Shown here one piece after another: positions 18,253 to 59,576 of a DNA stretch of 64,000 nucleotides. Numbering within the stretch: the first letter of the stretch is position 1; each line of letters opens with the position of its first letter. The stretch is from the NCBI RefSeq assembly GCF_053078305.1, contig NZ_CP166879.1. One strand, 5' to 3'. The notes below the pieces were generated by a model. The model did not search any database, was not told where the DNA came from, and saw only the letters and a program-made list of their open reading frames with translations. The translations under genes were made by a program, and so were the position numbers.

Positions 18253-18338
18253 ATCACAGATGGGATAACATCCCGGTTATCCCCTGTTTGTTCTGCTTCA
18301 GGTTGCCAGAGCTCCAGGAACACGAGGCAATCGGCAAA

Positions 18339-40211: not shown

Positions 40212-40364
40212 GTAATTAACCTCCTAAAGCCTGGCGATAACACGATAATTTGCAAATCAGATATTTCCAATATCAGCATTTGTTATCAATTTATTCTGCG
40301 CTAAGGCAACTGCCTGATAAGGTGTTAAAGTTATAAAACCCTTCGCATAAAGGAGTTGTACACC

Positions 40365-41556: not shown

Positions 41557-42693
41557 TTACGAAAGCCCGCACCCCGCAAGGACTGACGCGAGGTAGTTTC
41601 TGTCCATGGCTGCTTTTCTCATCTTACGTCTTAGCCCTGCCTTGAATACCTTATCATTCGTCAAAATATTAATAGTGATATGCCTTATCCCTGAAAATAA
41701 TTCTGCTGCATTTCCTCTTCTTATTCTGCAGTCGTCTTCATTCATTATCACGTCCAGGCGCCAGTGCAGCTTATTTTCCACGTGCCAGTGATTCCGGATC
41801 GCTGTGGCGAACTTCTCTGCAGTTAAATCAGCAGAGCTGATATAATATCTGACCGTCATTTCGGGCTCTTTCTTTTGTTCTGCTATTATTGACCGAAAGG
41901 AGACTGCCATGCATAATTTTTTTAGTCCTTTCCATTCAAACGTGAAATCAATAAGTTCATCAGGGACATCGCAAACAATATGAAGACGGGTTTCTTCTCT
42001 GCCGTGACTCTTTTCACTTATTTCGTAACTGTCATGCTTTGGATTATTTAATTCTTTCAGCGGGAATTTTTCCTCAAAGGCTTTATTTAGTCGCCCCTGA
42101 TTTCCCTTTACAGCGAATAAATAATCACCTCCCTGTTTTTGTATCTTTTCTGCAATATCTTTCTGGCAACCCATCGCATCAGTTGTGATGATTTTTCCTT
42201 TAATATCCATCATGTTAAGAAGTTCAGGAATAGCTGTAATCTCATTGGATTTCTCATCCGTCTTGATCTGCCCGAGGACCAGACTGTGCATAGTTGAGAA
42301 CGCACTAATGACATGAATCGCTCCCCTGCAGCGACTCTTGTCATAAGAGTGCCGGAGCGTTGTTCCATCAATTGCAATAACGTCTTTATCATTTGAGGAA
42401 TGGCGGTCACGCATTCAGTTAATAAAGCACTCGTGAAATTTTGTAGGACTGATACAGGATACAACTCTGGCAATGGTATCGTGAACAGGAATACCATTTT
42501 CAAAATCACCATATTGCTTCAAAAAATCGAGATATGTTTCACCAAAATCCTCTATATCTTCCCAACCCTCTGCACCAGAAATGACGGCACAAATAGTCAA
42601 CAGTAGAATATCTGACAATTTATGTTCCACTTTCCAGGCTTGTCTGTAATCGGGGATAATAGAAATATGTTCCATCAACTTTTTAAGTTCCAT
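41557..42693 (-). pseudogene. ISAs1-family (H-repeat-associated) transposase with in-frame TGA
   Basis: ORFs 42415..42693 (92 aa) and 41557..42414 (285 aa) are in the same frame, separated only by TGA at 42417-42415 (...[16 protein letters not shown]...). Confidence 0.7.
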
Positions 42694-43031
42694 TTTGTTC
42701 TCCTTATTTATGCAAGGAGTATTTGATCATGTATAAGCAATAAAAAACAGCTTCAGGTAATGAGGAATATCTCAATTTTTAAACATAAAATGCTAATTAT
42801 TTAGTACAAAAAGTGTACTTCTGATGATCTTTCCCTGACCTGTAACCGCTTTGATTCCAAACGAATATCTTTTAATGACATAATAAATTTATATTCATTC
42901 AGTCTTCAGGTAAACAAAATAGACACTATAAATAATAGTTATCATGAAAATTCATAAACACCATCTATTCTATGAGATGATTATCAGTAATTATGGAAAC
43001 ATCAGCAACATGCTTATGAGATGGTATACAT

Positions 43032-43526
43032 TCACTGAGATATTTCCGTTTCTGTGATTAATACCGGATAAGCATTTAATTGCAAAAGCTGCATCAGATT
43101 ATCGCAGACAACAGGCACCAATAATAATCCATCAGCCTGCTTATTTAATAGTTCCATTCGGTCTGCTGATGCAACATTCACAACCAAACCGAGGGCATTT
43201 AGCGATTTAAACTTCTCCAGGTGTTCACTCATCCATCGCAGAGAAAAAGGATCATCGCCAATTATAAAAACAGGTCCCCAGCCAGTTAATAACTGACGTT
43301 TCGTTACAGTACCGGGATGAAGTTGAGTACATATTACAGGAAATACCCCCTGTCGTGATGGCTCCGATGACGAATGTAATTCAGAAACATTTCCTGTTGT
43401 CAACGAAAGATTAATACCCATGAGTAATCGCGAAACGCTCTCACTTTCCTGGTTAGTTCGCCAAACAAGGGTTGCACTAGTCTGAAAAGAAAAAAATATT
43501 ATTATATATAAACATAGTTTTAACAT
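43032..43526 (-). CDS. Hypothetical secreted protein (164 aa)
   Basis: ORF with N-terminal hydrophobic signal-like segment. Confidence 0.35.
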   Translation of the reverse strand: MLKLCLYIIIFFSFQTSATLVWRTNQESESVSRLLMGINLSLTTGNVSELHSSSEPSRQGVFPVICTQLHPGTVTKRQLLTGWGPVFIIGDDPFSLRWMSEHLEKFKSLNALGLVVNVASADRMELLNKQADGLLLVPVVCDNLMQLLQLNAYPVLITETEISQ

Positions 43527-43564
43527 AATACAATCAGTCCATTTAATTCATGCTATAAAACAAC

Positions 43565-44116
43565 TCATTGATTAATTGGCAAGGTACCATCCCGGTTAAA
43601 ATCATCAAATATTTTATCAATTTCCTTTGCGGTTTCTATATATATAATCTCCTTTGTCCTTGCATTAAATATAGCCCAAGCCTCGGGGTTGGACGTCCCA
43701 CCAAATCTTACAAAAAAATTTGACTTCATGTTTTTATATAAATTAATTTCTGGAAAAGGATCTTCTCCAATATTAGAAATATTAGGGGGTGTAAATTTAT
43801 GTCTTTCAGAAAACTCTTTTGGTAAGATAGTTTCACTGCCATTTATGGTATTTATCCAGAAACTACTACCATTATATTCCAGCATTAAGCGCAGTTTTAA
43901 CGGTATTTTATCTTGTTCTTTAACGACAACTAATACCTTTTTAACAACCTGCTGTGCCGACGGTCCTATTGTATTCCAAAGAGATAGTAAACCACTTTTA
44001 CTATACACAACTTCCTGAATAAAATAAATATTCGTTTTATCACCTTCGATAACATCTTCCATTAATCCCTCCAGACACAACCAAATTACATGGCAAGAGT
44101 ATAATTCTAATGCCAC
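43565..44116 (-). CDS. Hypothetical protein (183 aa), possible orphan immunity protein
   Basis: ORF only; location in the effector/immunity tail. Confidence 0.35.
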   Translation of the reverse strand: MALELYSCHVIWLCLEGLMEDVIEGDKTNIYFIQEVVYSKSGLLSLWNTIGPSAQQVVKKVLVVVKEQDKIPLKLRLMLEYNGSSFWINTINGSETILPKEFSERHKFTPPNISNIGEDPFPEINLYKNMKSNFFVRFGGTSNPEAWAIFNARTKEIIYIETAKEIDKIFDDFNRDGTLPINQ

Positions 44117-44486: not shown

Positions 44487-44900
44487 TCATCTATTAATGG
44501 CGAATGAAATAGATAATGAATTAAAATAATCATCTAGTAAAAATTGTTTGATACCGGGATCATAAGCCCGCATAACAGAGTGTTTTGTTTCCAATAATGG
44601 GATAATAGTATTCACTCGAGGAACTACAGCACCTAAAAATATAATATCATTATTTTTTTGGACTAATAAAACAGGAAGAGTATCAAGATCTACCTCTGAA
44701 ACCATATCAGAATGCCGTTCAATATCCATCCAGATAAAGAAATCGTTTGGATATTTTTCCGATAATGCAATTAATGGATTTTTCCAGTCATTACAATTAT
44801 TGCACCAATCCGCACACAAACAAACAACTAGTTTATTATCATTATTAGCGGAAATAAACTCCCCAATCTGCTGGATATTATCCTCAGGGTAATATATCAT
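44487..44900 (-). CDS. Thioredoxin-like protein with C-x2-C-x-C motif
   Basis: 137 aa; CADWCNNCNDWK motif. Confidence 0.45.
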   Translation of the reverse strand: MIYYPEDNIQQIGEFISANNDNKLVVCLCADWCNNCNDWKNPLIALSEKYPNDFFIWMDIERHSDMVSEVDLDTLPVLLVQKNNDIIFLGAVVPRVNTIIPLLETKHSVMRAYDPGIKQFLLDDYFNSLSISFAINR

Positions 44901-44911
44901 TTCTTTTCCTT

Positions 44912-46147
44912 TTAATAATTAAGCAAATTATCCTTTGGTGAGGTATTCTTGTCCAAATGGAAAAGATGCCATGAAGCAATCCAGCGAACGAGTTGGCTTC
45001 CGTCAGAAAAATTAGTATTACACCAAGATGCAGTCACTGATTTCCCCAGGAACAGTCTTTCCTCATTACGATACTGTTGACACATCGATGTAACTTTATG
45101 AATATCAGGCATTCCTATGCCGGTTCCAAACACATTTAACCGAGAGGTAATCTCAGGCAACTTTTCATCCTTTGCCGGTAATAAATATTCCTTATCATCT
45201 ATATCAATGCCAGTTATCAGACTTACAGCAACAAACGCAATACGAGAAAGCTCTTCTTTTTCCATTAATGAAAGTAATAGAGGTAGAGTTTTTGTATTTG
45301 CATAATGGGCATAAAAAATGATTTGTAAATACTCAGGTAAACCAGAAATAAATGCAAAAGGGTAAGTCAGTTCAGAACAACATTGCCCAAGAAGTCGAAC
45401 TAACATCTCAGTTTGCTGGTTTTTCCTGATACCTTCAATGCCTCTAAGAGGCGGCAGGGTTAAATAATCATCAATCAACAGACATAATGGATTAATCATC
45501 ATTGACTTATCTGATGAAAGCCAACATGCAGCACTAACTGCTGAAAATCTGACTGATAATTCATTGCTACCAAAATATACCGTTAACGCAGGAAGATAGC
45601 TCTGTAATCCAAGTTTGCGAATATAATCCAGCACAGCTACCTTTTCTTGTATATTTCCGTTATCTAGTTTTTTTATCAAAAAATCTTCTGATAAGTGTAA
45701 TTTGCTCTGAGAACAAATATTTAATGCTATCTGAACCTCGGAAGGTATAGAGGAAAGTAAGAATTCATTAACAGTACCATAAACATGTTCTTTAGCTGAA
45801 TGTGATAACGCAGAGACATACCCATTCAACGTTGTATCTGCATATTTAGATACATACGACCAGGTTGCTTTCATCCAGGCAGGATTCTGACACTGATTCG
45901 CCAGAAAACCGCAAACAAACGCTTCTCCCTGAGAGTGCCAGCGTCTCAGTGCCGCATAGCTCTCCTCCCATCCATCATCACCAGCAACATGTAATCCCTC
46001 CAGATTAGCATCAATATATTGATTAAATTGCCTGAGATCGGCGCTTTTAACTAATGGCGAAAATCTGCTTTCTTCTTTCTGAAGCCAGTAAAATGCCGCA
46101 TTCGCGGCATGCTGACGAATAATCGGTTGTATTACCTGATGATTCAT
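44912..46147 (-). CDS. Hypothetical protein (about 411 aa from an internal start; track ORF extends to 46246)
   Basis: Long ORF downstream of the GHH effector; start at MNHQVIQP would abut the upstream stop. Confidence 0.4.
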   Translation of the reverse strand: MNHQVIQPIIRQHAANAAFYWLQKEESRFSPLVKSADLRQFNQYIDANLEGLHVAGDDGWEESYAALRRWHSQGEAFVCGFLANQCQNPAWMKATWSYVSKYADTTLNGYVSALSHSAKEHVYGTVNEFLLSSIPSEVQIALNICSQSKLHLSEDFLIKKLDNGNIQEKVAVLDYIRKLGLQSYLPALTVYFGSNELSVRFSAVSAACWLSSDKSMMINPLCLLIDDYLTLPPLRGIEGIRKNQQTEMLVRLLGQCCSELTYPFAFISGLPEYLQIIFYAHYANTKTLPLLLSLMEKEELSRIAFVAVSLITGIDIDDKEYLLPAKDEKLPEITSRLNVFGTGIGMPDIHKVTSMCQQYRNEERLFLGKSVTASWCNTNFSDGSQLVRWIASWHLFHLDKNTSPKDNLLNY

Positions 46148-46148
46148 A

Positions 46149-47177
46149 CTAGTCTTCTGCCTCATCATCAGTCTCATCATCTGACTGCCATTCAACAGAA
46201 TTAATGAGTAAATGCCATTCCTGTCCGTCGTGCCATGCTGCACCATACATTCCGGCCATTAGCATCACACCATCACCCACTGATAAATGCCCTACCGCTA
46301 CAGCTATTTCAGAAGGAAGATCCACAGGAATTAATGTATCACCATCCAGACACCATAGACCGTAATCAGATGTACACCACACTTTTCCGGCATGCCAGAC
46401 TATATCTTCGAAGGGAAGACTATAACCACCCGCAGAGACTTTTTCCCATTTATTCCCACGGCCTTTAAATAATATACCAGATTGACCACCAATGTAGACA
46501 TAACCATCCCCTGCACAACACACTGTTTCTAGATAGATGTTTGAGGGAAAATTAATTTGCTCCCATTCTGCTCCAGAAAAATGCCAGACATTTCCCTTAC
46601 CGCCGACTACATACAAATCATCATAGGAAAAACCATCTATATCTCTTAGTTTAAATTCATCGCCAAATCTACCTTTTTCTTTTGAGTAATCAAAAACCGG
46701 GAGATTCAAACAGAGTGACTGCCAGTCATTAACTCCGTCTCTGTATCCCACAGAGTTATTGTACCCAACAATATACAGTCTTCCTGAAATATTTTTAATT
46801 TTCGTTATTATATTTCTTAGAGGACCGTCAATTCCGAAAGGAATTTTTTTCTCTCTGCTATCATATTTACAACTACGGGAATAAACATATCCCTCATCAT
46901 CAACACAAACAACTTCGTCATAGCTATTATATGATGCACTACCTATATATAACTGCCCCATGTTTTTAAGTGGCTGAAGTGATATACAATCGTCTGGGCT
47001 ACCATCTAAATAGATCCCGACTTCACCTTTAGTTACTGTATTTTCATCAATAACACTTGCTTTTCGACTCTCTTTAATATTACGAACAGAAAAATGGAAA
47101 AAATCCTTATTTCTTACAGTACAATCCTTAATATACCATTTTTTAAAAATTGCAATGTTCTTATCAGTAATTTTCAT
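46149..47177 (-). CDS. Candidate immunity protein with repeated G/W-rich beta-propeller-like units
   Basis: Directly downstream of the GHH-nuclease effector; repeated ...G.....W... units; start taken at MKITDKNIAIFKKW. Confidence 0.4.
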   Translation of the reverse strand: MKITDKNIAIFKKWYIKDCTVRNKDFFHFSVRNIKESRKASVIDENTVTKGEVGIYLDGSPDDCISLQPLKNMGQLYIGSASYNSYDEVVCVDDEGYVYSRSCKYDSREKKIPFGIDGPLRNIITKIKNISGRLYIVGYNNSVGYRDGVNDWQSLCLNLPVFDYSKEKGRFGDEFKLRDIDGFSYDDLYVVGGKGNVWHFSGAEWEQINFPSNIYLETVCCAGDGYVYIGGQSGILFKGRGNKWEKVSAGGYSLPFEDIVWHAGKVWCTSDYGLWCLDGDTLIPVDLPSEIAVAVGHLSVGDGVMLMAGMYGAAWHDGQEWHLLINSVEWQSDDETDDEAED

Positions 47178-47184: not shown

Positions 47185-48828
47185 TTACCTCTTATTACCT
47201 GTAGGTGTTTCAGTATTCTGAGAATCAACTTCATCTTCAGTAAATGCTTTTCCAGCTACCGCTGGCATATCATCATCGCAATTCTTATAATAATTATCCA
47301 GTTGTTTTCTAAGGCAGGCTCTGCTGCATCTTGATTCCGGGAATGTTCGTTCAAATCCATCCAGGGCAATTTCTTTGGCATCTTCGTAATCAATTTTATC
47401 TTTATCGCTGAACCAGCCACTTTTCTTATAAGCTTTGATATCTTTGATCATCTCATCATGCATTTTGCCATGCGTTCCGTTTCCATTATTTGTGCCCTCT
47501 ACACAAACTGTCGGTGCCCCGCCTTTCGAATAACCACTGCAATGTCCTTTAGCCATTTCATCAGGAATAAGATGGTGGCCTGTCTGTCCGGGACAGCACC
47601 CTTTTCCAGTTTCGATACTCTTTTTGGCTCCGGTCTTATTATAATCAACGAGAAGGCATCGTCTTGCACGCGTACAGGGATTTATTCTCGCCAGCGCCCC
47701 CATTCCTGTTGCCATCATTTGAGATGGCGTCATATTTTTTAGCGTATTTTCCAGTTCAGCTTTGGCCTGTTTGACTAAAGATAAAATATCTTTTATCTCA
47801 TCTAATTTTTTATACGCTTCAATACCTAACTTGGCTGTATCATAAGCTGTACCAATTGCATCACAGACGTTCCATATTGTTGCAATTGTCTCGGTTACAA
47901 CTGCTCCAACGCCAGCAGCCGTAGCACCTATCGTACCCACGGCCCACCTTCCAGCCGCGTGTGCTGCTAGTTTTTCTGCTTTATGCAGAGCAGCAGTTTG
48001 TGCTTTATCAATAATTTCTTGTTTTAGTTGCTCAAGCATTGGCTCTATTAGTGAAGCCACTTTTTTATTAAAATCCTCCGTCAGTTCTTTCAATAATTTG
48101 TTATACTCCTCCAGGCCAAAACGTGGCTTAATCCACAAACCAGTACAATGAGAAAAAATCCATTCATTCTCCGGAGTTTTTAGTTTAGCGTATGTATTTC
48201 TGACTTTATCATCCAGCGTTTCCAGTTTCCCACCAATTTCTTTACCCATTAATTTCATGAAGTTTTTATTTTTTACATGATTCCTTCTGTTTTCCTCTTT
48301 CTTTTTTTCATCTTCATCATCATTTTTGTTATCTTCATCCGGTTTACATGCCTTCCTTATCCGATCTTCTTCCTTTTTACACTGTACAGGCATATCAAGA
48401 GTATCCTTATATGTGCCTGTAATAGTATTTCCTGGCTCCGAACCATGATTGTGCGTCATTAAATCTTCATGGCGTGCCACACACTTCCCTTCGAATTTTA
48501 CATTTGGCGACCATGATTTAAAGTAGGCTTTTCCTTTAATGACGCCGGTAATTACACCTTTGGGTTGGGATTGTGTAGCGGGTTCATCTCCGGTACTGGT
48601 TGAAAAAAAGGAAATATCTTCTTTAGCCACCATCGAATTGCATATGAATACGGTTATGGTTCCGTCCTTCATCGTTGAGGCATATGCAGTATTTGGATAA
48701 GGTACCACTATCGGGCCAGCCGGAGGAGAAGGCGGTGTCCAGCACGGATCGGGAAACACCGCTTTTGACACGCCGTCCGATGCCTTGGAGCTTGCCTCCC
48801 GGCTATTGATATAAACTTGAGTTTCCAT
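47185..48828 (-). CDS. T6SS effector: N-terminal DUF4150 (PAAR-like) domain, C-terminal HNH/EndoVII-fold GHH nuclease toxin domain
   Basis: 547 aa; N-terminal ...DPCWTPPSPPAGPIVVPYPNTAYAS...; Lys/Glu/Asp-rich linker; C-terminal CCPGQTGHHLIPDE. Confidence 0.7.
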   Translation of the reverse strand: METQVYINSREASSKASDGVSKAVFPDPCWTPPSPPAGPIVVPYPNTAYASTMKDGTITVFICNSMVAKEDISFFSTSTGDEPATQSQPKGVITGVIKGKAYFKSWSPNVKFEGKCVARHEDLMTHNHGSEPGNTITGTYKDTLDMPVQCKKEEDRIRKACKPDEDNKNDDEDEKKKEENRRNHVKNKNFMKLMGKEIGGKLETLDDKVRNTYAKLKTPENEWIFSHCTGLWIKPRFGLEEYNKLLKELTEDFNKKVASLIEPMLEQLKQEIIDKAQTAALHKAEKLAAHAAGRWAVGTIGATAAGVGAVVTETIATIWNVCDAIGTAYDTAKLGIEAYKKLDEIKDILSLVKQAKAELENTLKNMTPSQMMATGMGALARINPCTRARRCLLVDYNKTGAKKSIETGKGCCPGQTGHHLIPDEMAKGHCSGYSKGGAPTVCVEGTNNGNGTHGKMHDEMIKDIKAYKKSGWFSDKDKIDYEDAKEIALDGFERTFPESRCSRACLRKQLDNYYKNCDDDMPAVAGKAFTEDEVDSQNTETPTGNKR

Positions 48829-48995
48829 ATTAGATATTCATCTTTCTTATCGTAATTTCCCGTGGATACGGCAATCAGTATATTTATGAATTATTTATTA
48901 CCGGCATAGTTATAAATAAAATACTTAAATCAATACACAACACAAAACAACAAACCAATCTTTATGTACTTTCTTAATGAAGAAAGAAATGACTA

Positions 48996-49445
48996 TCACC
49001 TTTCTATTATGGGGAAGGTTAATCCCTTTGAAAATTTATTTCCAACATCAGACTCTTTGGTATAAATATTAGTAATCACACTTAATTTTGCACTAATTTT
49101 TATTTTTTCATTGTCTTTTCTAAAACTTTCAATCTCACTGCTTAATATAACCCAATCAAACATAACACTTTCCCCTGAATGTATTACAGTTAAGTGAGAC
49201 AATAATTCCTTGCTTGTAAGATTCGGACGGAGGTAAAATCCGTCACTCCCATTAAAATTCATTAATTTTATTGCTGGACCTGTTTTTCTTAAATACTCAA
49301 AGGGGACATAAATATCACGGCCACTATCATTCCGAAAATTAATATCAATCAACAAGTTATTTTTTTTAGTATACAAGCATTCAGAAGTTTTCGAGTTATC
49401 ACACTCAACCCAAATGGCAAAATCGTTTACACTAAGATCACTCAT
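48996..49445 (-). CDS. Candidate immunity protein for the upstream metallopeptidase effector
   Basis: 149 aa ORF immediately downstream of the effector. Confidence 0.4.
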   Translation of the reverse strand: MSDLSVNDFAIWVECDNSKTSECLYTKKNNLLIDINFRNDSGRDIYVPFEYLRKTGPAIKLMNFNGSDGFYLRPNLTSKELLSHLTVIHSGESVMFDWVILSSEIESFRKDNEKIKISAKLSVITNIYTKESDVGNKFSKGLTFPIIER

Positions 49446-49505
49446 TGTATTCCCCTAATTTCCATTCGATTTCGTATTATTAGTACAACAAATCACTCGT
49501 CGTAA

Positions 49506-50699
49506 CTACAGCATAACTTCACATTTCGTTGTTATATTGCGTTTAGAATTTTTCATTATATCATTAGCTTCTATAGCAATAGGCCAGCAATGTCTTTCCA
49601 GAACAATCGTGTTGTCCACTGCCGACATTATTGTTGATGAAGGGTCATTAGTAATTCCACCATCATATGGGACATTTATCTTATTATCCATTGTTCCATC
49701 TGGTTTATAGTATGCAACTGTTTCTCCACCTGCTGGATCATAAGCATATTCATCAGGTAAACCAAAGCAATGCCCGAACTCATGGGCATATATCCAATCA
49801 CGAGTTGAACCAGATACATTCATCTCGAATCCAGTAACACCTTCTCTTGGAAATTTTTTGTGAATATTCATTAAATAATGTTCGTTTGATTTTACCCATA
49901 AAATCTTAAATCGAACAGGTAGCTCAATATCTCCACAAATAGCATCTTTTAGTTTCAATTTGAATTTATTATTCCAGTATTTACTTACCCCTTTGAGCAT
50001 TTTCGCTTTTGCATTTTTTATGTTTTTTTTACTCACACCTGCACCACCCACAGTTTTAAATCTTACCGTCACTATAACTTTTCTATCTTTTATTATATTA
50101 ATATTTAATTTAAATCTTCTTTCAATGAGATAATTATGAGAAAGCCCATTAGAATCAAAGGCATCCGCATAACGCTTTGTAATGTTAACACTAACTTCTT
50201 TTTCGTAATTATCTTGCCAGCATAGCATTTTCAAGACGTTATCCCATATTCTATTCCCAACAGATATAGGCTCTGATAAATAATAGAATAAATCTGTATT
50301 TCCTGGCTGAGAACCGTGGTTGTGTGACATTAAATCTTCATGACGTGCAACGCATTTCCCTTCAAACTTTACATTTGGCGACCATGTCCTGAAGTAAGCT
50401 TTTCCTTTAATTACCCCGGTTATTACGCCTTTTGGCTGTGACTGCGTGGCTGGCTCATCTCCTGTACTGGTTGAAAAACAGGAAACATCTTCCTTTGCCA
50501 CCATCGAGTTACAAACAAATACGGTCGTTGTACCGTCTTTCAACGTTGAGGCATAGGCTGTGTTAGGATAAGGAACCACGATGGGACCCGCAGGAGGAGA
50601 TGGTGGCGTCCAGCAAGGATCAGGAAATGCAGCTTTAGATACACCATCAGATGCCTTTGAACAAGCCTCCCGGTTGTTGATATAAACACGCGTATCCAT
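49506..50699 (-). CDS. T6SS effector: N-terminal DUF4150 (PAAR-like) domain, C-terminal HExxH zinc-metallopeptidase-like toxin domain
   Basis: Start taken at MDTRVYINNRE; first about 130 aa nearly identical to the 47185..48828 effector; C-terminal YAHEFGHCFGLPDEY. Confidence 0.7.
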   Translation of the reverse strand: MDTRVYINNREACSKASDGVSKAAFPDPCWTPPSPPAGPIVVPYPNTAYASTLKDGTTTVFVCNSMVAKEDVSCFSTSTGDEPATQSQPKGVITGVIKGKAYFRTWSPNVKFEGKCVARHEDLMSHNHGSQPGNTDLFYYLSEPISVGNRIWDNVLKMLCWQDNYEKEVSVNITKRYADAFDSNGLSHNYLIERRFKLNINIIKDRKVIVTVRFKTVGGAGVSKKNIKNAKAKMLKGVSKYWNNKFKLKLKDAICGDIELPVRFKILWVKSNEHYLMNIHKKFPREGVTGFEMNVSGSTRDWIYAHEFGHCFGLPDEYAYDPAGGETVAYYKPDGTMDNKINVPYDGGITNDPSSTIMSAVDNTIVLERHCWPIAIEANDIMKNSKRNITTKCEVML

Positions 50700-50703: not shown

Positions 50704-51717
50704 TTATCCTCTGTAATACTCTGCAACCAGCGCAACCCGAAGTCCACTGTCACCACTGAAATGAACCAGTGCTCTTTCTCCCGTATCAGGGAATCGACAC
50801 ATCATTTCATTCAGATAGGCCAGTGTCAGTGGCCCGGATGCCGCCCCGGTTTCTCCCAGATTGCTGGCAAGCTGGTAATGAGGGTATTGTTTTTTTTTCT
50901 TTTCCAGACACCGGGTGATTGCCAGAGCAGTTTCACGGAAATACCATGACTCACCAGTGACACCACTAATATGAAAGTCTGTTTCTGCTAATAAAACCCC
51001 TGCATCCTGAATTGCTTTCCGGATTGCAACAGATAATCCTTTAGCCATATTAGCTTTATCATTTTGTAGGATATGAGCATCTTCGTTGCTGACACCGACA
51101 CCGGTAATACAAATGCCCTGAATACAACTATCTGGTTTACAAAACACAATAGCCCCGGCACCTTCCCCCGGAATAAAACCATCCCTGTTGCTGGTGCATA
51201 ATACGCGTTCATGAGTAAGAAGATAATTTATTCTTGCTGGTGAAAAATAACTATCCACACCGACCACAAGAGCATATGAAGCAAGTCCGGAGTATAGAAT
51301 ACGCTGAGCTTCTGTAATCGCAGAACCAATCCCTGTCTTCCCTCCCTGTATACATATAGAAGATTCATGCCAGGTTGTTTTTACTCTACTAAAAAGAAAC
51401 TCATTTCCTGATGAGCCATAACATTGCTCTGCACATTCTGATAAAAGAAAAATCAGACATGTATTTTCTTTTGTCATTCCAGGTGTTTTTAAAATACACT
51501 CAGCCACTACATTTTCAAACATCCAGAGTAGCCGCTCATCACCCCAGGTATCATTCTTATATAATTGAGCACCAATAAGTGGTTTTCCATTTAAGTCATA
51601 AAAAGTTGTTTCAGCAAAATGATCCAGACCCGAGCGAATGGCCGCTGATGCAGAAGGAACTGAATATCCTATACTGCAACACATTCCGGCTGCCGCAATA
51701 AATAATGGTGATGCCAT
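50704..51717 (-). CDS. Beta-ketoacyl synthase-like (thiolase-fold) protein with degenerate active site
   Basis: 337 aa; N-terminal PLFIAAAGMCCSIGYS and RDGFIPGEGAGAIVF resemble KAS I/II blocks; positions aligned by eye to the catalytic Cys and His are Gly/Lys and Glu. Confidence 0.5.
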   Translation of the reverse strand: MASPLFIAAAGMCCSIGYSVPSASAAIRSGLDHFAETTFYDLNGKPLIGAQLYKNDTWGDERLLWMFENVVAECILKTPGMTKENTCLIFLLSECAEQCYGSSGNEFLFSRVKTTWHESSICIQGGKTGIGSAITEAQRILYSGLASYALVVGVDSYFSPARINYLLTHERVLCTSNRDGFIPGEGAGAIVFCKPDSCIQGICITGVGVSNEDAHILQNDKANMAKGLSVAIRKAIQDAGVLLAETDFHISGVTGESWYFRETALAITRCLEKKKKQYPHYQLASNLGETGAASGPLTLAYLNEMMCRFPDTGERALVHFSGDSGLRVALVAEYYRG

Positions 51718-51722
51718 AATAA

Positions 51723-52865
51723 CTATGCTCCTGTTTCTGTTACAGGTTTATTCGTTAATTCTGGATTATTGTTTTTTTCTCCGCATCCACCGCAGGTTTC
51801 CCCTCCCCCCGCAGCTCGTTGCTGCCACCAGGTTTTACCCACAGGCCCTATAGCAACAGTGTGAATTTCCTGAATCCGTCGCTTAAGAGGTATACTTGTA
51901 CGCCAGACTACACTAAAACGCTCCTCATTGGGTTCAAAATAAAGCGTATCAACAACCGGCATTAATTCATGAGCTTCATAATCCATCGTTAAAATTCTAA
52001 CGGGCATTTGGTTTATATGAGGTAGCTGAAATTCAATGACTGAGCGTTCTTTATGCATATTTATCAACATAACTTTTTCACCACCCTGCGGATATGCGGT
52101 CTGTTGATCAGGTGGTGCGCTCTGAAAATAACGCTCATCAAAATCCTCCGGAAGAAAGGGGGAGACTTCTGCACGCCATCGTTCGTCATATGTTCCGGCA
52201 TACTGTAAACGTAACGGATGGTTTCTTGGCCGGGCGGAAAATGCTCCCGGCTCCGGATGTGATTCTGGACGTGTCACGCTATCTTGTGGTAGTTCAACCA
52301 ATGGCAGACGTGAGTTAATGAATACGGTTTCATCCCGATGATTGCCATAACCGATTCCAACAATATTGCTGGAAAATATTTCCCGATTCTCATTTCCCTG
52401 TACATCTTTCCAGACATACTCTCCACCAAAGGCATTACCATAATGTAATGAGACTGACTGTATGAACTCTGTATCAGATATAATCCAGTCTGACGTCTTT
52501 TTCTGCCAGTAGCGCGGACCAAATACCTTTAGACTCTTATCGACTTGACCTACAATTGCTCTTGATTCTGTCTGATAATTATTCCCCTCGCTTACAAAAT
52601 AAGTTGTTGCGTTAAATAAAACATCACATTTCTCTTTATACCTGACATAATCGGCCTCATATAATACAGCAGAGAATCCAGGTTCACCCACATATATGTC
52701 ACTTTCTACCAATGGCTGAGGTGGTAATAGTGGGCGAGGGCGTCGATTGTTTACGGGGATCTGATAAGTTGCTTTAATTACAACTACAAGATAATCTTTC
52801 CCATTTTTATCTGTTGCAGTGAAAACATCAGCTATCGTGTGTTTTGCAGCATTAAAAATTTCCAT
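51723..52865 (-). CDS. Putative DUF2169-family T6SS adaptor
   Basis: 380 aa ORF between vgrG and the DUF4150 effectors, the canonical position of DUF2169 adaptors; assignment is positional. Confidence 0.45.
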   Translation of the reverse strand: MEIFNAAKHTIADVFTATDKNGKDYLVVVIKATYQIPVNNRRPRPLLPPQPLVESDIYVGEPGFSAVLYEADYVRYKEKCDVLFNATTYFVSEGNNYQTESRAIVGQVDKSLKVFGPRYWQKKTSDWIISDTEFIQSVSLHYGNAFGGEYVWKDVQGNENREIFSSNIVGIGYGNHRDETVFINSRLPLVELPQDSVTRPESHPEPGAFSARPRNHPLRLQYAGTYDERWRAEVSPFLPEDFDERYFQSAPPDQQTAYPQGGEKVMLINMHKERSVIEFQLPHINQMPVRILTMDYEAHELMPVVDTLYFEPNEERFSVVWRTSIPLKRRIQEIHTVAIGPVGKTWWQQRAAGGGETCGGCGEKNNNPELTNKPVTETGA

Positions 52866-52877: not shown

Positions 52878-53420
52878 TCAGTTTACCTGCACAGACCCAC
52901 CTTTTAACCTGTGTGTTGCCTGCGCCTGACTGTCAATATAAAGCGCGCGTATCTGAAGCAGTCCATCCGCCGATAAAACAATTTTTGACTCGCCGCACTG
53001 GAGCACTAATTCTTGTTTCGCTGTCAAAACAACTCGCTCTGTATTTAGTTCGTCTTCAGTACATTTTTTCGTCTCTGAATGATATCTTTCTGTTAAATTC
53101 TCCGGAAGTATTCCGGTCACTACCGGATGAGAATAATTGCCAGAGAGAAACTGCACAGTGCATAATCGTCCGTTATACTCCGTAGTTACAGTTCCCAGAC
53201 CCAAAGCTGCAACAGGTTTATCTTCATGAGGACACTGAATCAATATTTCTCCAGAGTCTTTGACACTGACAATTCTGCCGACAACCAACACAGGGATATC
53301 ACTGACATGCGCCTGGGATTTACTAGCCTGATGAGATAAAATATTTTCCAGCAAATGTGTTGTACTGGTCAGTTCCTCTTCTGGCTGTGGGACGTATATA
53401 TCATGCAGTTCCTTTATCAT
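52878..53420 (-). CDS. Hypothetical protein (180 aa) translationally coupled to vgrG
   Basis: Start overlaps the vgrG stop at 53420. Confidence 0.4.
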   Translation of the reverse strand: MIKELHDIYVPQPEEELTSTTHLLENILSHQASKSQAHVSDIPVLVVGRIVSVKDSGEILIQCPHEDKPVAALGLGTVTTEYNGRLCTVQFLSGNYSHPVVTGILPENLTERYHSETKKCTEDELNTERVVLTAKQELVLQCGESKIVLSADGLLQIRALYIDSQAQATHRLKGGSVQVN

Positions 53421-55408
53421 TAGTTCTCCAGAATTTTCTTCCCTTTCATATTCATATCACCATCAGCTTTATAAAACTGATCACCTGTTGTTCCCAACGA
53501 CAATTCATGTCCATTTATAGTGATGTAGCCATCTTTATCCATGCGCAAAGTACTCTTACCACATACAAACTCGATGGAATCGCCTACTGTCACTGTAAGA
53601 GTTTCCCCTACAGTAACAGACTGAGATTTATCCACAGCCTCGGTATCATTCCCTGTTACCTTACTATCCTGATCATTACCTACGCTCTTGCTACGATTGT
53701 TCGTGACAGTCAGAGATTGATCATTTCCTACGCTTACATTTTGATCGTGAGTTACAGTGACGGTCTGATCATGTCCCCCGGCATTCTCCTTACCCACCGT
53801 CACCGTCTGGCCCAGCCCAACGGTAATACTCTGGTTGTTACCGATGGTTTCGGTATGGTCCACTTTCACATCAGTAGTGCGGTTGTTCAGCACTTCCGTA
53901 TCCATGTTCTTCTGTGCATGGATATAGACCTGTTCACCGCCCGTGGCGTCTTCAAACCGCAGCTCGTTAAATCCGCTTCCTTTATAGGTCTTCGACCGTA
54001 TCGTCATCTGCGTCTTCGTCCCCGGCAGACTCCCCGGCGAACGGTTGTCCTCATGGTAGGTCCGCCCCATGATTATCGGCTGGTCCGGGTCGCCGTTCAG
54101 GAAGTCTACAATCACTTCCTGGCCGATGCGCGGTATCGCCAGGTTACCGAACCCCGGCCCCGCCCACGCCTGCGACACCCTCACCCAGCATGAACTCGCC
54201 TCCGTCATCCCGTGATAACGGTCCCAGTGAAACTTCACCCGTACCCGGCCATGTTCATCGCAGAAGATTTCCTCTCCCGCAGGCCCGGTGACAATGGCAC
54301 TCTGCGGGCCGTCCACCTTCGGTTTGCTTTGCACCCGTGGACGCCACGTCCGGTCCGCCGGTATCACCTCTAACTGATTGCCCAGCGTGGTTCCTCTCCC
54401 CTGGCTGCCGTGCAGCGCCTGCGGCTGGCTTCCTGACAGTATGCTCTGTACCACCTGCCATTCACGGTTCAGCATCTTCTGCGGATGCCCCGTCAGCGTA
54501 AACCGCGTTCCCGGCCACAGCCGCGGCGAATTACTCTGCCCTGTGGCCTTTTCCGCATCACTGCGCAGGCTGTCCATCTGGTACAACGTGAAATCCTTGC
54601 CGTGCTGTTCATCCTTGAACCTTCCCGGATAATCAAATATTTCATACTGCGCCAGCTGTCCGTTCAGGTTCTCACCCTGCTGCTCATACATCCCCGGCCA
54701 GTCCGGCACCTTAAACGTGTAATCCTGGCTCTGCACCGACGACGGGCGGACATGCGCCTCATAACGGAACATACTGACACACTCTGTCTCCGCTCCTGCC
54801 GATGTGTCCGGGTTAAACGGAAGCTCTCCCGCCTGTGACAGCCCCGCCACATCGTCGCACAGCGTCAGCTTCTGCTCCGGACTGTCCGCCGCAAACCGCT
54901 CAAAGAAGAAAATCCCCTCCTCCGCCCACAGCCGCGCCAGAAACGCCAGGTCGCTTTCCCCGTACTGCACACAGAACTCCCGCGCCGGATGGTCCTCATA
55001 AAACAGCGGCGTCCACTCCGTGACGCCGTTCTCGTTCAGTAACGTGGCCGATATCGTCCGGATATCCTGCTGCTGGAAGATACGGAAGTTCTGCCGCAGC
55101 CCACACCGCCATAACGGCGGCTGGATACACAGGTGATAACGCATCTGCCAGCCGTTATTCTCCTGCATCCCAAACCCCGCCACCACGCCGGTGACATAAC
55201 GCAGCGGGATGACGCCCTGCCAGATGGTCAGCGTCGCCTTCTTCTCCAGCAGCATCTCCGCCGTCTGCATAAAAGAGTCGCTGGCAACATCCACACTCAT
55301 CACAAACGGATATGACCCGCCCTGGATTAACCGGAAGCTCACCACTGCAAAGGTGTCCGGCTCCTGGCCGTCAACCTCCAGCGTAAAGCGCAGACCTTTT
55401 AAGGACAT
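53420..55408 (-). CDS. vgrG: T6SS spike protein VgrG (paralog 2)
   Basis: 662 aa, MSLKGLRFTLEVDGQEPDTFAVVSFRL...; gp27/gp5-like body and C-terminal beta-helix repeats (TVGxxQSxTV). Confidence 0.9.
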   Translation of the reverse strand: MSLKGLRFTLEVDGQEPDTFAVVSFRLIQGGSYPFVMSVDVASDSFMQTAEMLLEKKATLTIWQGVIPLRYVTGVVAGFGMQENNGWQMRYHLCIQPPLWRCGLRQNFRIFQQQDIRTISATLLNENGVTEWTPLFYEDHPAREFCVQYGESDLAFLARLWAEEGIFFFERFAADSPEQKLTLCDDVAGLSQAGELPFNPDTSAGAETECVSMFRYEAHVRPSSVQSQDYTFKVPDWPGMYEQQGENLNGQLAQYEIFDYPGRFKDEQHGKDFTLYQMDSLRSDAEKATGQSNSPRLWPGTRFTLTGHPQKMLNREWQVVQSILSGSQPQALHGSQGRGTTLGNQLEVIPADRTWRPRVQSKPKVDGPQSAIVTGPAGEEIFCDEHGRVRVKFHWDRYHGMTEASSCWVRVSQAWAGPGFGNLAIPRIGQEVIVDFLNGDPDQPIIMGRTYHEDNRSPGSLPGTKTQMTIRSKTYKGSGFNELRFEDATGGEQVYIHAQKNMDTEVLNNRTTDVKVDHTETIGNNQSITVGLGQTVTVGKENAGGHDQTVTVTHDQNVSVGNDQSLTVTNNRSKSVGNDQDSKVTGNDTEAVDKSQSVTVGETLTVTVGDSIEFVCGKSTLRMDKDGYITINGHELSLGTTGDQFYKADGDMNMKGKKILEN

Positions 55409-55450: not shown

Positions 55451-55717
55451 TTAGTTATGACGTACAATAAAATGACTGGCTATCAACGTTGCTCCGCAGG
55501 TTGTTTTATCACCATCATGTGCAGCCTGTTTTCCATTAACAGAAAAACCCTGTCCAGATGCTATAATATTCGTCGTTCCATGCCCCTCTATCGGGCAGAT
55601 TACTTGGTCACCATCACAAGCTACAGGCTGACCTTCATGCAAAAAATCCGCACTGGCACTAATAACAATGCCTCCATGAGATGTTTTATCACCGAGAGTG
55701 ATTAATGATTTCATCAC
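55451..55717 (-). CDS. PAAR-domain protein
   Basis: 88 aa; ...GQPVACDGDQVICPIEGHGTT... Confidence 0.75.
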   Translation of the reverse strand: MMKSLITLGDKTSHGGIVISASADFLHEGQPVACDGDQVICPIEGHGTTNIIASGQGFSVNGKQAAHDGDKTTCGATLIASHFIVRHN

Positions 55718-55769
55718 CTTACCCTTTAATATAATGTATTATGTACGATTTTATTTTTCTGTGCATTTT

Positions 55770-56600
55770 TTAAGGTGTTAATTGCCCAGAGTTATCACCC
55801 TCATAAGATTCTTTTGGTACTGAATGTAACTGCACTTTCCCATATCGACAAACAATCCACCAGATAAAAGATGATATAATGGAGAACGGAAATATAAAAA
55901 CCACATAAAGAGGCCATAGATATACTTTCATCGTTCTTTCACCTTCATCACAAGGCCAGGAACAAAATGGCCATGGCTTATAATGCTCTATGATCTCGGC
56001 AGGCGTCAGGTAAATTTTTTTTTGGCGGAAGTCGTCCCAGTCATACTTTTCAGGTATTCGTAGGTTATCCGAACCTTTATGTATAAAATCTTTTATATAC
56101 TCAACAATAGGCATAAAATTATAATGTCCGTCAAATTCAATTTTATGCTCAACTTTCTGACCAAATCGATCATGCGAATAGAGTAATAAATAAGTTGTTT
56201 TAAGACCTCCGAGGAAATCCAAATCATTTATATTACAAATATATTCTTCATCATTCAAATAAAAATATATTCTTTTTGTTTTTCTATTTAAAACGATATC
56301 AGAATTTCGTTTTATGTTATGTATAAAGCCACGAGTCAAAAACATAAAAAACATTGGGAGTAACATCATCAGCAAGCTATCTATAAGCTTCCTAAAGATG
56401 CTAACTGAATCGGTTGTAGAAAACATATGATATATAATTATTATTGCTGCAACAGACCATGTGAATGAAAAAAAAAGCGTCATAACTCCATATGTCACGC
56501 TATCATTTACAGTAGCTGTTCTTAACGTAAGGCAATGTCGACTTAATGAAATAAACTGCAATCTCATGTCATAACAATTTACTGTTTTTTTGTTCATCAC
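55770..56600 (-). CDS. Putative membrane immunity protein for the upstream effector
   Basis: 276 aa with hydrophobic helices (VMTLFFSFTWSVAAIIIIYHMF, LLMMLLPMFFMFLT); directly downstream of the large effector. Confidence 0.4.
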   Translation of the reverse strand: MMNKKTVNCYDMRLQFISLSRHCLTLRTATVNDSVTYGVMTLFFSFTWSVAAIIIIYHMFSTTDSVSIFRKLIDSLLMMLLPMFFMFLTRGFIHNIKRNSDIVLNRKTKRIYFYLNDEEYICNINDLDFLGGLKTTYLLLYSHDRFGQKVEHKIEFDGHYNFMPIVEYIKDFIHKGSDNLRIPEKYDWDDFRQKKIYLTPAEIIEHYKPWPFCSWPCDEGERTMKVYLWPLYVVFIFPFSIISSFIWWIVCRYGKVQLHSVPKESYEGDNSGQLTP

Positions 56601-56621
56601 ATTCTCGCCATTCTTAATTAT

Positions 56622-59576
56622 TCAAAATGATGGTGGCATACTTTTATTAACCACACCCATATATTGATTAAAATCAAATTCCAGTTTATACTCACAAAGA
56701 ATAGATACATCGTTCATAAAGCCCGTGTTTGGCCTGTATCTAAAACTAAGAGCAACGTCTTCAACATGATGTTTATCCACCTGCTTGCTAAAACGAAGTA
56801 AAACCCCCCCGTTTTCTGGAAACATTCTTTCAATAGTAAAGCCACTAGTTATTTCTCTGATATCACTAACATCAGGTACAAAATCTGGAAGATAAAGAAC
56901 AAACTGTGCCGGCCCGATATAGCAAGTAGAAATGGTATCTCCAACTAATTTCCATTGAGTATAAACATCTGGATGTGTGAGATAACTTGCGAGAGTAGAG
57001 TCAACTAATATAGGTTTATAGCGAACCTTAAAATAATCAACAATAGCTTCATTAATATTTTGAAATTGTTTCATATCTTCGTCAGTGCTGTTTTCATCCC
57101 TGATAAACGCACCAAAAATAGTATGATTCACCCAACGTTCAAATGAGGTATGATTATCTTCATCAGCTTCCAGTCCTAACCATATACCAACAAGAATTAG
57201 CACTAATCCGACGACAACTATCCATCCCACAATAGGTATAGCTCCTGCTGAAAGCGCCCCAGTAACAGCACTGGGTAAAAAACTCGCAGTGACAGAAGGA
57301 AATGCAACCATTAAAGACCCCATTGCACCTGCAATTGCTGATTCAAAACGTAAACCTTTACCATCCGTATCTGATACCCACCATTTAGACAAATCAGAAA
57401 ATAAAGAAAAACCGATTGCAGCAATCCCCAAATACTTACCGAACGCTGCTGACGCAATTTTTTTTAAAATCCATCTTTTGTAATATTCACCAGCCCATAC
57501 AACTCCTTTATCAATCGAATTTCTTTTCATGAAATTTTCAACAGATACTAACAAAGCATTACACCCAGCCAAAGCGCCTGAAAGTGCAGCAATGAAATTT
57601 AATACTTTTCCACATGATATTTTATCATCTGTTATTTCTTTTTTTAGATCAACATATGCAGAAAATAAATAAATCATACCAAATAGTAATAAGCCAGCGG
57701 ATGCGGCAGTTACGCTGACAGAAGTAGATAATTTACCAGAAACTAATTTTTCGGTTGCTCTTGCACTCTGTAAATCTTGCTCCACTACTACAATCAAATC
57801 TCTTTTCCCTCGCCCACTAAAATAAGTAATTTTAGCTTTATCCAGTTCTACCATACCGCTTTCAACCAAAATCTTAAACTGACTGGTAACAGGATTACGT
57901 TCAAATAAATCATTGGTAATAGTATATCGTGCCCTTAATATACCCAATAATTGTCTAATATCCCCACCATCTGCAGCGGCATTTATCTTAGCCAATGCAG
58001 AACCTTTTAATTCAGGGCGACCTTTTATATTTTTACTTTTTAACAAATAAGCAACAATATTAGTCGTAAGAAGGTCAGTTCCAGCGGTAGCTCGCATAAA
58101 AACATCTTTCTTTGATATTTCCTGAATCACGTTATCAGCAGCCCCAAGCCATCCACCTACAGAATTTGCATCTTTTCCAAAAGGGCTATAGGCCAATAAT
58201 GCCTTATAGACAGGACTGTTTGTATCATTAAGCCAAACGTTTAATAATGCTGTTCGAGTATCTTTATCCTCGCGTCCTGGAATAGGATTACCAACACCAT
58301 TAATCATCATAGCAATAGACATTTCCAAACTATATGCTGAAATTTTTACATTTCGGTCATAAAGCATTAATGCACTGGCTACTGATAGACGGTTATTTTG
58401 ACAAGTTTCCTCTGCACTGCTTAGCCAAGCACAATGATCGATTGTAGCTAACTCTGCCTGTCGCAGCACGATTTCTGCATTCTCTTGAATGATTTTCTTT
58501 TCTTCTAAAAAAGCTAAGAATTTCTCCTGATTTATACGTTTAGCAAACCTAGCACCGCTAGCTGAACGAGCTTCATCTATTAACTCATAGAAATGACAGA
58601 CATCGCGATCGCCATCAACTAATGAAGTATCCCCTTTACTTGCACTGAGACTAATTAACGTATTGAATATGAGCTGGCATATAATATCTTCTTCATAAAA
58701 TCTCTTACTTTTAATGTGTAGTTTACTAACATCTAATCGCATAGCTTTAGGTAATATGTAATCCTCTGATTCAGATTTTATATCATTTATCTGATGTCTA
58801 TATAATTCTGCTATTGCAGATACATCAATAGCAATCCCTTCGGCATCTAGCAGGGCAATTACAGCTGGAACTTTAGGTTGATAATTTGGAAAATATGATT
58901 TTAATGATTTCAATTCATTGACATTCGAAACAAAAGGCTCTTCCTCGCTCCATCGCATATCCATTTTTTTTTCTTCAGGTTTATACTCCTCTACCCACTG
59001 TTCCAGAGCATCTATCGGAAGAATATTTTTTTGTATAGAATAATCATGGTTGCAATTAACTAACTCTGCTACATCCACAGCCTGCATAAACCGTTGGCGA
59101 GATGCCAGGTTAGATAAGAGATCATTTACCCTTGTTTGAGTCCACAGATGGGAACTATAACCAATCCATACCTCTGTTGCATCTGTTTCAATCCAGACGT
59201 TTGGCATCTGCTTACCACTTGCATAGGCATCACGCGAGTTATATTGCTCAAGATATTGAATTTGCAACTCCTGAAACAATCCATTCCCTTGATGTTCGTG
59301 TATAATTAACTTTGTATATTTTGGTGATGACAGATAAGTATAAACATATCCTACACGAAGAGCACGCAGTGTATATTTAGAGCAATTCAGCGTAGCAACA
59401 CAGGTAAACCCTTCTTCAAGATTATATTCACAACCTTCCCATGAAAATTTTTGTGAATCATCAAGACATTTAGGAATAATGCCATAGCGTATCGGAAGTA
59501 GAGGAATACGTCCTATCTCTTGTGTGCATGGTTTTGCGGATATAATATTTTCATTCGCCATAAATACACTCTCCAA
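56622..59576 (-). CDS. Large putative T6SS membrane-targeting (pore-forming, VasX-like architecture) effector
   Basis: 984 aa; C-terminal third has several long hydrophobic helices (e.g. GWIVVVGLVLILVGIWLGL); sits between an adaptor-like gene and a membrane immunity candidate. Confidence 0.45.
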   Translation of the reverse strand: MESVFMANENIISAKPCTQEIGRIPLLPIRYGIIPKCLDDSQKFSWEGCEYNLEEGFTCVATLNCSKYTLRALRVGYVYTYLSSPKYTKLIIHEHQGNGLFQELQIQYLEQYNSRDAYASGKQMPNVWIETDATEVWIGYSSHLWTQTRVNDLLSNLASRQRFMQAVDVAELVNCNHDYSIQKNILPIDALEQWVEEYKPEEKKMDMRWSEEEPFVSNVNELKSLKSYFPNYQPKVPAVIALLDAEGIAIDVSAIAELYRHQINDIKSESEDYILPKAMRLDVSKLHIKSKRFYEEDIICQLIFNTLISLSASKGDTSLVDGDRDVCHFYELIDEARSASGARFAKRINQEKFLAFLEEKKIIQENAEIVLRQAELATIDHCAWLSSAEETCQNNRLSVASALMLYDRNVKISAYSLEMSIAMMINGVGNPIPGREDKDTRTALLNVWLNDTNSPVYKALLAYSPFGKDANSVGGWLGAADNVIQEISKKDVFMRATAGTDLLTTNIVAYLLKSKNIKGRPELKGSALAKINAAADGGDIRQLLGILRARYTITNDLFERNPVTSQFKILVESGMVELDKAKITYFSGRGKRDLIVVVEQDLQSARATEKLVSGKLSTSVSVTAASAGLLLFGMIYLFSAYVDLKKEITDDKISCGKVLNFIAALSGALAGCNALLVSVENFMKRNSIDKGVVWAGEYYKRWILKKIASAAFGKYLGIAAIGFSLFSDLSKWWVSDTDGKGLRFESAIAGAMGSLMVAFPSVTASFLPSAVTGALSAGAIPIVGWIVVVGLVLILVGIWLGLEADEDNHTSFERWVNHTIFGAFIRDENSTDEDMKQFQNINEAIVDYFKVRYKPILVDSTLASYLTHPDVYTQWKLVGDTISTCYIGPAQFVLYLPDFVPDVSDIREITSGFTIERMFPENGGVLLRFSKQVDKHHVEDVALSFRYRPNTGFMNDVSILCEYKLEFDFNQYMGVVNKSMPPSF

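Follow-up and report, generated by a model that had tools for sequence, protein, structure and literature searches.

The two genes described here lie in tandem on a 64,000-nucleotide stretch of an Escherichia coli chromosome (contig NZ_CP166879.1 of RefSeq assembly GCF_053078305.1), and this whole stretch is called the window. Their products are designated E1 (49506..50699, 397 amino acids, aa) and E2 (47185..48828, 547 aa). Both are encoded on the minus strand, which carries every gene of interest, and both open reading frames (ORFs) were located where a preliminary description, made from the DNA letters alone, had placed them. They coincide with RefSeq coding sequences in a 99.5%-identical E. 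coli genome, which are WP_023307617.1 ('DUF4150 domain-containing protein') and WP_044189047.1 ('PAAR-like domain-containing protein'). The surrounding region (41–64 kb) is the variable end of a type VI secretion system (T6SS) island and extends from yafV (40356..41135) to hcp (63103..63621), which comes first in the order of transcription. Its G+C content is 33–44% compared with about 52–58% in the flanking core genes.

When we compared E1 and E2 by BLASTP, we found that residues 1–135 align with 121 identical positions (90%, E = 5e-88) and that nothing significant follows. The preliminary description had called the first 130 residues almost identical. The shared N-terminus was confirmed but the wording was slightly generous. 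At the DNA level, the similarity runs from the ATG to codon 135, and the sequence on either side is unrelated. The shared DNA is about 80% identical and 66 of the 79 differences among its 405 nucleotides fall at third codon positions. For this pair of coding segments, we calculated a nonsynonymous rate (dN) of about 0.05, a synonymous rate (dS) of 1.1–1.8 and a dN/dS ratio of 0.03–0.05. The two copies are old and under purifying selection, and the shared module is far beyond chance. A recent duplication as source of the shared N-terminus was ruled out because the synonymous sites are saturated. We also considered a longer GTG-initiated ORF (to 50756) as the true start of E1 but rejected it, since the similarity to E2 and to all homologues sets in only at the ATG (50699), which is also the start given in RefSeq.

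Both N-termini match the Pfam family Tox-PAAR-like (PF13665, formerly DUF4150) with E-values of 3e-27 (E1) and 2.4e-26 (E2), and residues 23–132 correspond to positions 4–107 of the 108-position model. Domain searches had been suggested in the preliminary description, and they returned the DUF4150 family it had named for both N-termini together with PF15635 for E2. DUF4150 has been renamed PIPY, a domain that needs a cognate DUF2169 chaperone to form the spike tip with VgrG and that carries the motif P(I/V)P(Y/F) in place of PAAR motifs (PMC11883445). No PAAR motif was found in the N-terminus of E1 or E2. At the PIPY motif position both proteins read G-P-I-V-V-P-Y-P-N where aligned relatives have P-V-P-I-P-Y, which means that the first proline is replaced. 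Both genes are genetically linked to a DUF2169 gene and to vgrG on the same strand and in the same operon.

Behind its PIPY part (codons 1–135, 50295..50699), E1 carries a toxin domain, here called warhead, that is encoded by codons 136–397 (49509..50294). The sequence HEFGHCFGLPDEY occupies residues 306–318, and the zinc motif H306-E307-x-x-H310-x-x-G313-x-x-D316 maps to about 49746..49784. It can be seen that the string H306-E-F-G-H310-C-F-G313-L-P-D316, which represents the extended HExxHxxGxx(H/D) motif, is invariant in 26 sequences. HExxHxxGxPDEY and a T-I-M tripeptide are invariant among the warhead homologues, and M358 in this tripeptide, 42 residues past D316, is a candidate for the Met-turn. 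In addition, the warhead contains four near-invariant cysteines. A search of 5.8 billion proteins yielded 54 homologues at 40–49% identity, and when 1.84 billion cluster representatives were searched with a profile, only 53 clusters were obtained at E <= 1e-30; the family is small.

The AlphaFold2 model of the E1 warhead reached a mean pLDDT of 91.2 and its structural neighbours are extracellular metzincins (astacin, ADAMTS, matrix metalloproteinases, fragilysin). The predicted fold is metzincin-like with 5–21% identity to every solved structure, and a sequence search of all PDB chains gave no useful match for either warhead. After residue 135 of E1 no Pfam toxin family was found, Tox-MPTase included; we only observed short sub-threshold matches to the M6 'immune inhibitor A' profiles around the zinc motif. 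These matches cover the motif only (about 29 residues), and their scores (PF05547, 0.0012 over 28 residues; TIGR03296, 27.9 bits compared with a cut-off of 110.8) do not place the protein in family M6. Taken together, the motif and the structural model indicate that the E1 warhead is a predicted metzincin-like zinc endopeptidase outside M6, in line with the HExxH metallopeptidase-like domain first suggested for this protein. When the literature was searched for T6SS toxins of the E1 family, either metzincin-type or HExxH, it returned only unrelated ones (VgrG2b, Tox-MPTase4, M91, a gluzincin VgrG and Tox-HopH1).

The homologues of the E1 warhead occur on four types of carrier. They are found as free-standing proteins of about 265 aa adjoining a DUF4123 adaptor, close to VgrG and to either DUF2345 fragments derived from VgrG or a PAAR gene, as C-terminal domain of canonical PAAR proteins, as C-terminal domain of VgrG and, in E. 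coli only, as PIPY fusions. When we inspected 84 PIPY ORFs from 79 related loci of other species, none carried the peptidase domain, while 55 carried GHH2. In a 569-aa metagenomic homologue (P0177), which lacks a signal peptide, the peptidase is preceded by an OmpA/Pal-like peptidoglycan-binding domain. This architecture hints that the warhead family may act at the cell wall.

Directly downstream of E1 lies a minus-strand gene (48996..49445) for a candidate immunity protein of 149 aa, and its homologues are located directly downstream of E1-warhead homologues. They were found in Raoultella (37% identity, 2e-27), in a metagenome-assembled genome of the Xanthomonadaceae (29%, 2e-19), in Enterobacter wuhouensis and in one further genome. 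An ORF of this type directly follows the E1-type warhead at its 3' end whatever the carrier, be it PIPY, PAAR, a VgrG fusion or DUF4123-linked cargo. Profile searches revealed no recognisable domain in the 149-aa protein. Five of the six immunity homologues lack a signal peptide. The only close homologue outside E. coli, from Escherichia marmotae (P0056), carries a 41-aa N-terminal extension that resembles a Sec signal peptide, and no upstream extension of the E. coli ORF is possible.

The second effector gene encodes PIPY (48424..48828), a helical middle region (about 47614..48423) and a Tox-GHH2 domain (Pfam residues 414–513, 47290..47589). The match to PF15635 has an E-value of 3.6e-9 and spans positions 16–121 of the 122-position model. 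The sequence CCPGQTGHHLIPDE is present and the family motifs read T-G-H-H-L-I-P and H-G-K-M-H; the motifs published for Tox-GHH2 are s[AGP]HH and HxxxH (PMC3482391). G282, H283, H284, H318 and H322 are invariant in 30 E2 homologues. The E2 warhead is thus a predicted Tox-GHH2 nuclease of the HNH/EndoVII type (DNase), as its provisional description as a GHH nuclease-like domain had implied. The 412-aa region after PIPY is kept in more than 250 proteins of Proteobacteria, Myxococcota and Planctomycetota, and most of these are PIPY fusions of 530–550 aa. Many other homologues of the middle-plus-GHH2 region (P0060–P0065 and others) are proteins of about 400 aa that lack PIPY, and therefore the E2 warhead unit occurs on its own as well. 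A non-covalent link between this unit and a carrier might be provided by the helical middle domain. In the AlphaFold2 model of residues 136–547 (moderate overall confidence, pLDDT 76.7), the nuclease part is confident and the middle is helical with a disordered, hydrophobic stretch rich in glycine and alanine. Fold comparison of this model was uninformative.

Three more genes on the minus strand follow E2. The first (46149..47177) encodes a candidate immunity protein of 342 aa, which is annotated in RefSeq as a WD40/YVTN/BNR-like repeat protein and has relatives after GHH2 toxins. It is 79% identical to the product of the gene after the Citrobacter E2 orthologue and 29% identical (3e-40) to a paralogue after the other GHH2 toxin of E. 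coli strain AHM8C212RI; no Pfam match was obtained for it. Both effectors are thus followed by candidate immunity genes, as had been proposed, and these are conserved partners elsewhere. The second gene (44912..46147) encodes a TIGR02270-family protein with HEAT- or armadillo-like repeats (NCBIfam TIGR02270, 1.5e-24, below the curated cut-off). Citrobacter has a gene of equal size in this position, and for the orthologue of C. koseri a faint match to HEAT_2 was seen. An armadillo-like gene has been reported in synteny type A (PMC11883445), and no direct armadillo profile match was seen for the product of 44912..46147. The last conserved gene of the operon (44487..44900) encodes a thioredoxin-domain protein according to weak NCBIfam thioredoxin matches and the RefSeq annotation, and a PF00085 protein stands in its position in Citrobacter. 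The operon of Citrobacter freundii consists of VgrG, DUF6484, DUF2169, a 337-aa protein, a PIPY-GHH2 effector, a 330/341-aa protein, a 415-aa protein and a thioredoxin protein. Its effector sits directly after the PRK06147-like gene and is 83% identical to E2 past PIPY, while its PIPY domain is 87% identical to that of E1. Because this operon matches, E2 and the three downstream genes are the conserved core of a 'pef-like' operon type.

Upstream of E1 the same strand carries VgrG-B (53420..55408; NCBIfam TIGR03361, 6e-179; tssI in RefSeq), the spike protein that heads the module. It is followed by a DUF6484 protein (52878..53420; Pfam PF20093, 1.2e-6), whose putative role is that of a TvpC-type short VgrG mimic (PMC13373197), and by a DUF2169 protein (51723..52865; Pfam PF09937, 1.4e-74), which corresponds to the PIPY/DUF4150 chaperone TvpA (PMC11883445, PMC13373197). 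The last gene before E1 (50704..51717) encodes a TvpD-type, 'thiolase-like' protein related to PRK06147 and beta-ketoacyl synthases (NCBIfam NF004798, 6.8e-63). This match spans residues 2–335 and its score of 213 bits is below the equivalog cut-off of 342 bits. A PRK06147-domain gene that lies with the DUF2169 gene on one side and a PAAR-like effector on the other has been described (PMC13373197), and the combination of DUF6484, DUF2169 and PRK06147 is what PMC11883445 defines as 'synteny type A' and PMC13373197 as 'Tvp class II'. Judged by their domain matches, the three genes between VgrG-B and E1 are exactly this accessory set. In transcription order VgrG-B is followed by the DUF6484, DUF2169 and PRK06147-like genes, E1, the 149-aa ORF, E2, the 342-aa protein, the TIGR02270-family protein and the thioredoxin-domain protein, so that both effectors sit behind a single set. 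Our promoter and terminator scan gave counts no different from those of shuffled sequences and no terminator in the intergenic gaps. This fits a single operon, though it does not count as support for one.

When the window was compared by blastn with strain AHM8C212RI, the two sequences were 96.5% identical from 55410 to 50294 (end of E1 codon 135) and 99.8% identical from 48829 to 43000. Between these blocks 1.46 kb of the window are replaced in AHM8C212RI by 2.3 kb of unrelated sequence that codes for a GHH2 toxin, with a partner gene other than that of E1. The exchanged segment (48830..50293, minus strand) contains the E1 warhead, its immunity gene and a 167-nucleotide spacer, and this exact replacement substantiates the suggestion that toxin domains are swapped on a constant module. 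Its breakpoints are located at codon 135 of E1 and one nucleotide before the ATG of E2; thus, the exchangeable unit is flanked on both sides by PIPY-coding sequence. Since the PIPY segments mark the boundaries of the cassette, the constant delivery module probably serves as recombination arm for warhead exchange. E1 and its immunity gene look like a cassette placed before an ancestral single-effector operon of the kind still present in Citrobacter freundii. The system corresponds to the polymorphic toxins defined by Zhang et al. (2012) in that a constant N-terminal trafficking domain is combined with alternative toxins that are exchanged together with their immunity gene. The E1 warhead recurs on PAAR, VgrG and PIPY carriers, and the immunity gene co-varies with the warhead. 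Such co-variation of partner genes is the expected signature of immunity proteins, and we infer this function for the partners of both effectors.

Among 5426 complete E. coli genomes this PIPY type is present in full in 12, all of which have two copies. The E2-type warhead was detected in 12 of the 5426 genomes and the E1 warhead in six, at an identity of at least 99.7% and from different hosts. Tandem PIPY ORFs occur in five of the 79 related loci. In each of the four comparable pairs the two PIPY cones are 84–100% identical at the protein level; the fifth locus has a fragment of one copy. The PIPY-GHH2 effector in the first slot is interrupted by one frameshift in AHM8C212RI (L002:8400-10060) and by two in E. 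coli 2017-02-2CC (L003:7780-9400). These frameshifts could be genuine decay or assembly errors. C. koseri retains only a 117-aa GHH2 fragment and the immunity gene in its first slot. In 2017-02-2CC a PAAR-VgrG-DUF6484-DUF2169-PRK06147-tandem-PIPY module lies near yncG/ansP, away from the T6SS core genes, and is interrupted by IS3. The module thus occupies a different chromosomal site in this strain and is therefore mobile as a whole within E. coli.

From these data we consider it probable (about 80%) that the locus is one T6SS 'vgrG island' of Tvp class II (synteny type A) that carries two alternative spike-tip toxins. The mechanism can be deduced from the homologous systems of P. aeruginosa (Tse7), P. 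mirabilis (PefD), V. parahaemolyticus and S. marcescens (PMC11883445, PMC13373197, PMC5714391, PMC9846239). By analogy, TvpA together with TvpC and TvpD would hold the PIPY domain in a pre-complex and would hand it over to the tip of the VgrG-B trimer. Because a VgrG trimer would take a single cone, each fired spike should carry either E1 or E2, and protease and DNase would thus be fired side by side by a population that relies on one accessory set. Whichever toxin is delivered would then intoxicate the recipient, and the proteins encoded downstream would protect the producer and its kin. Several observations weigh against this interpretation. The PIPY motif of both proteins reads V-V-P-Y and not the published P(I/V)P(Y/F), and the PRK06147 and TIGR02270 matches fall below the NCBI curated cut-offs. 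Shared ancestry, and not co-adaptation to one VgrG, could account for the 90% identity between the PIPY domains of E1 and E2; the C. freundii domain, too, is 87% identical to that of E1. The frameshifted first slots of other E. coli strains indicate that tandem occupancy is not always maintained and that one of the genes could be dispensable. Finally, the signals for the compartment in which E1 acts are in conflict. The absence of export signals from five of the six immunity homologues points to the cytoplasm as putative site of action, whereas the extension of the E. marmotae protein, the OmpA-like domain of the toxin homologue and the four cysteines point to the periplasm.

The damaged first slots, together with the fragment in C. 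koseri, would also be explained if only one effector were deployed and the other one were a decaying relic. Here, either E2 alone would work, as it keeps the conserved accessory genes, or E1 alone, as it occupies the canonical slot after the PRK06147-like gene. The 1:1 ratio of DUF2169 to DUF4150 in more than 80% of genomes (PMC11883445) and the small share of related loci with two PIPY ORFs fit such a relic. However, both genes of the window are intact with all catalytic motifs present, each keeps its own partner gene, the low dN/dS of the PIPY pair indicates purifying selection on both copies, and the segment of E1 warhead and immunity gene is 99.7–99.8% identical in the six genomes from different hosts. 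We therefore regard a relic as unlikely. Still more improbable in our judgement is that E1 is a host-directed or extracellular-matrix protease and that the 149-aa ORF encodes a chaperone or adaptor instead of an immunity protein. The extracellular metzincins among the structural neighbours, the near-invariant cysteines, which suggest disulfides, and the lack of a recognisable domain in the 149-aa protein are consistent with such a role, but in all contexts examined the toxin domain is directly followed by this small ORF, which is the signature of a toxin-immunity pair. Moreover, two of the loci concerned already have a separate DUF4123 adaptor, and the neighbour E2 belongs to an experimentally antibacterial family (PMC9846239, PMC5714391). 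Beyond two alternative spike-tip toxins behind one accessory set, we put forward, as a tentative extension that we would not yet favour, that the E1 warhead and its 149-aa partner represent an undescribed T6SS metzincin toxin/inhibitor family and perhaps a rare interbacterial zinc endopeptidase acting in the cytoplasm, as most partner proteins lack export signals. The stacking of PIPY genes behind one VgrG/Tvp set might in addition be a selected 'alternating warhead' design with the conserved PIPY segments as homology arms through which new warhead-immunity cassettes are taken up.

Among the described systems, E2 shares its architecture (PAAR-like domain, helical middle, Tox-GHH2) with Proteus mirabilis PefD, which consists of PAAR-like, 'Phasin2' and Tox-GHH2 domains. 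The immunity gene pefE lies directly downstream of pefD, pefF and pefG are also required, and the pef operon starts with hcp/vgrG and includes DUF2169 (PMC5714391). In P. mirabilis ATCC 29906, a strain other than that of PefD, genes for proteins of 176, 351 and 341 aa precede a PIPY effector in the order of the window. This effector is 42% identical to E2 over PIPY and the middle (3e-79), and its ORF stops at 330 aa. In contrast to the pef operon, the window carries an extra PIPY effector with its immunity cassette (E1) in front. The P. aeruginosa pair Tse7-Tsi7 (VgrG1b, PA0096-PA0098) resembles E2 in combining DUF4150 (aa 1–135) with Tox-GHH2 behind DUF6484, DUF2169 and PRK06147 genes (PMC9846239, PMC13373197). 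However, Tse7 (315 aa) lacks the helical middle of about 270 aa, and there is a single effector per locus. Some P. aeruginosa isolates have a deaminase in place of the Tse7 warhead, and the exchange point is again the junction at aa 135 (PMC9846239, PMC13373197). DNase activity and a toxicity that the adjacent immunity protein neutralises were shown for PefD/PefE (PMC5714391) and reported for Tse7/Tsi7 (PMC9846239). Our comparison with PefE/F/G and Tse7/Tsi7 draws on literature and synteny, as the 79 fetched loci included none from P. aeruginosa and, from P. mirabilis, just a short one in which the effector ORF is truncated.

A precedent for the tandem is provided by TseV1 and TseV2 of Salmonella bongori, two DUF4150 effectors with their own immunity genes in one vgrG island with one DUF2169 gene (PMC9635880). 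Both of these carry VRR-Nuc warheads, whereas the warheads of E1 and E2 are unrelated. Cpe1-Cpi1 takes up the same chromosomal site, delimited by yafV and the T6SS core genes, in other strains of E. coli, and there vgrG and DUF2169 are followed by an effector and an immunity gene (PMC12136450). This system differs from the window in being class I, in lacking the DUF6484 and PRK06147 genes and in having a single effector with a cysteine-protease warhead. The C-terminus of P. aeruginosa VgrG2b is a T6SS-delivered HExxH metallopeptidase (PMC6899460), and some E1-warhead homologues are likewise located on VgrG C-termini.

The E1/E2 system thus belongs to well-described kinds, namely a class II Tvp island with PAAR-like T6SS effectors of the polymorphic type. 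Swappable-warhead, PAAR-like spike-tip toxins that are loaded by DUF2169-type chaperones are already established, and E1 and E2 are a clean natural example of them. What is new is the rare fusion of PIPY with a metzincin-like domain from an unstudied toxin/immunity family that has no Pfam family of its own, the particularly clean recombination breakpoints, which provide a worked example of warhead cassette exchange in E. coli, and the natural arrangement of two effectors with one chaperone set. With both effectors on one VgrG/TvpA/TvpC/TvpD set, the locus offers a simple genetic system for studying spike choice between competing tips. The cones of E1 and E2 differ by 14 substitutions, and whether the chaperones tolerate these can be asked here.

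The module headed by VgrG-B is directly preceded by a second, independent effector module (55451..62882). It comprises VgrG-A (60765..62882, minus strand), which follows hcp in transcription order, and then a 404-aa Tla1/DUF4123-like adaptor, a 984-aa effector of the BTH_I2691 family, a hydrophobic 276-aa ORF and a canonical PAAR protein of 88 aa. The 276-aa ORF is likely to encode the immunity protein of this module. VgrG-A and VgrG-B are about 98% identical over residues 1–490 and unrelated beyond, and this pair of paralogues follows the same logic of constant carrier and variable end as the effectors. The 5' parts of the two vgrG genes have a G+C content of 0.61, far above that of the cargo genes. 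As a 1.5-kb direct repeat, they could bring about deletion or duplication of the intervening module. Strain A16 lacks the entire VgrG-A module and hcp there adjoins VgrG-B.

On the other side, the thioredoxin-domain gene is followed by two small ORFs and an ISAs1 pseudogene. The end of the island (41557..44116) comprises a PFL_4695-family 'integrating conjugative element' (ICE) protein (43032..43526; 4e-34, above the curated cut-off), an unannotated 183-aa ORF and an ISAs1 transposase pseudogene in two ORFs. In Cpe1-bearing strains, the effector is likewise flanked by this ICE-type gene and by remnants of ISAs1. At a distance from E1 and E2, a second stretch of low G+C content (0.38–0.44) extends from 12000 to 19000 and suggests another horizontally acquired segment.

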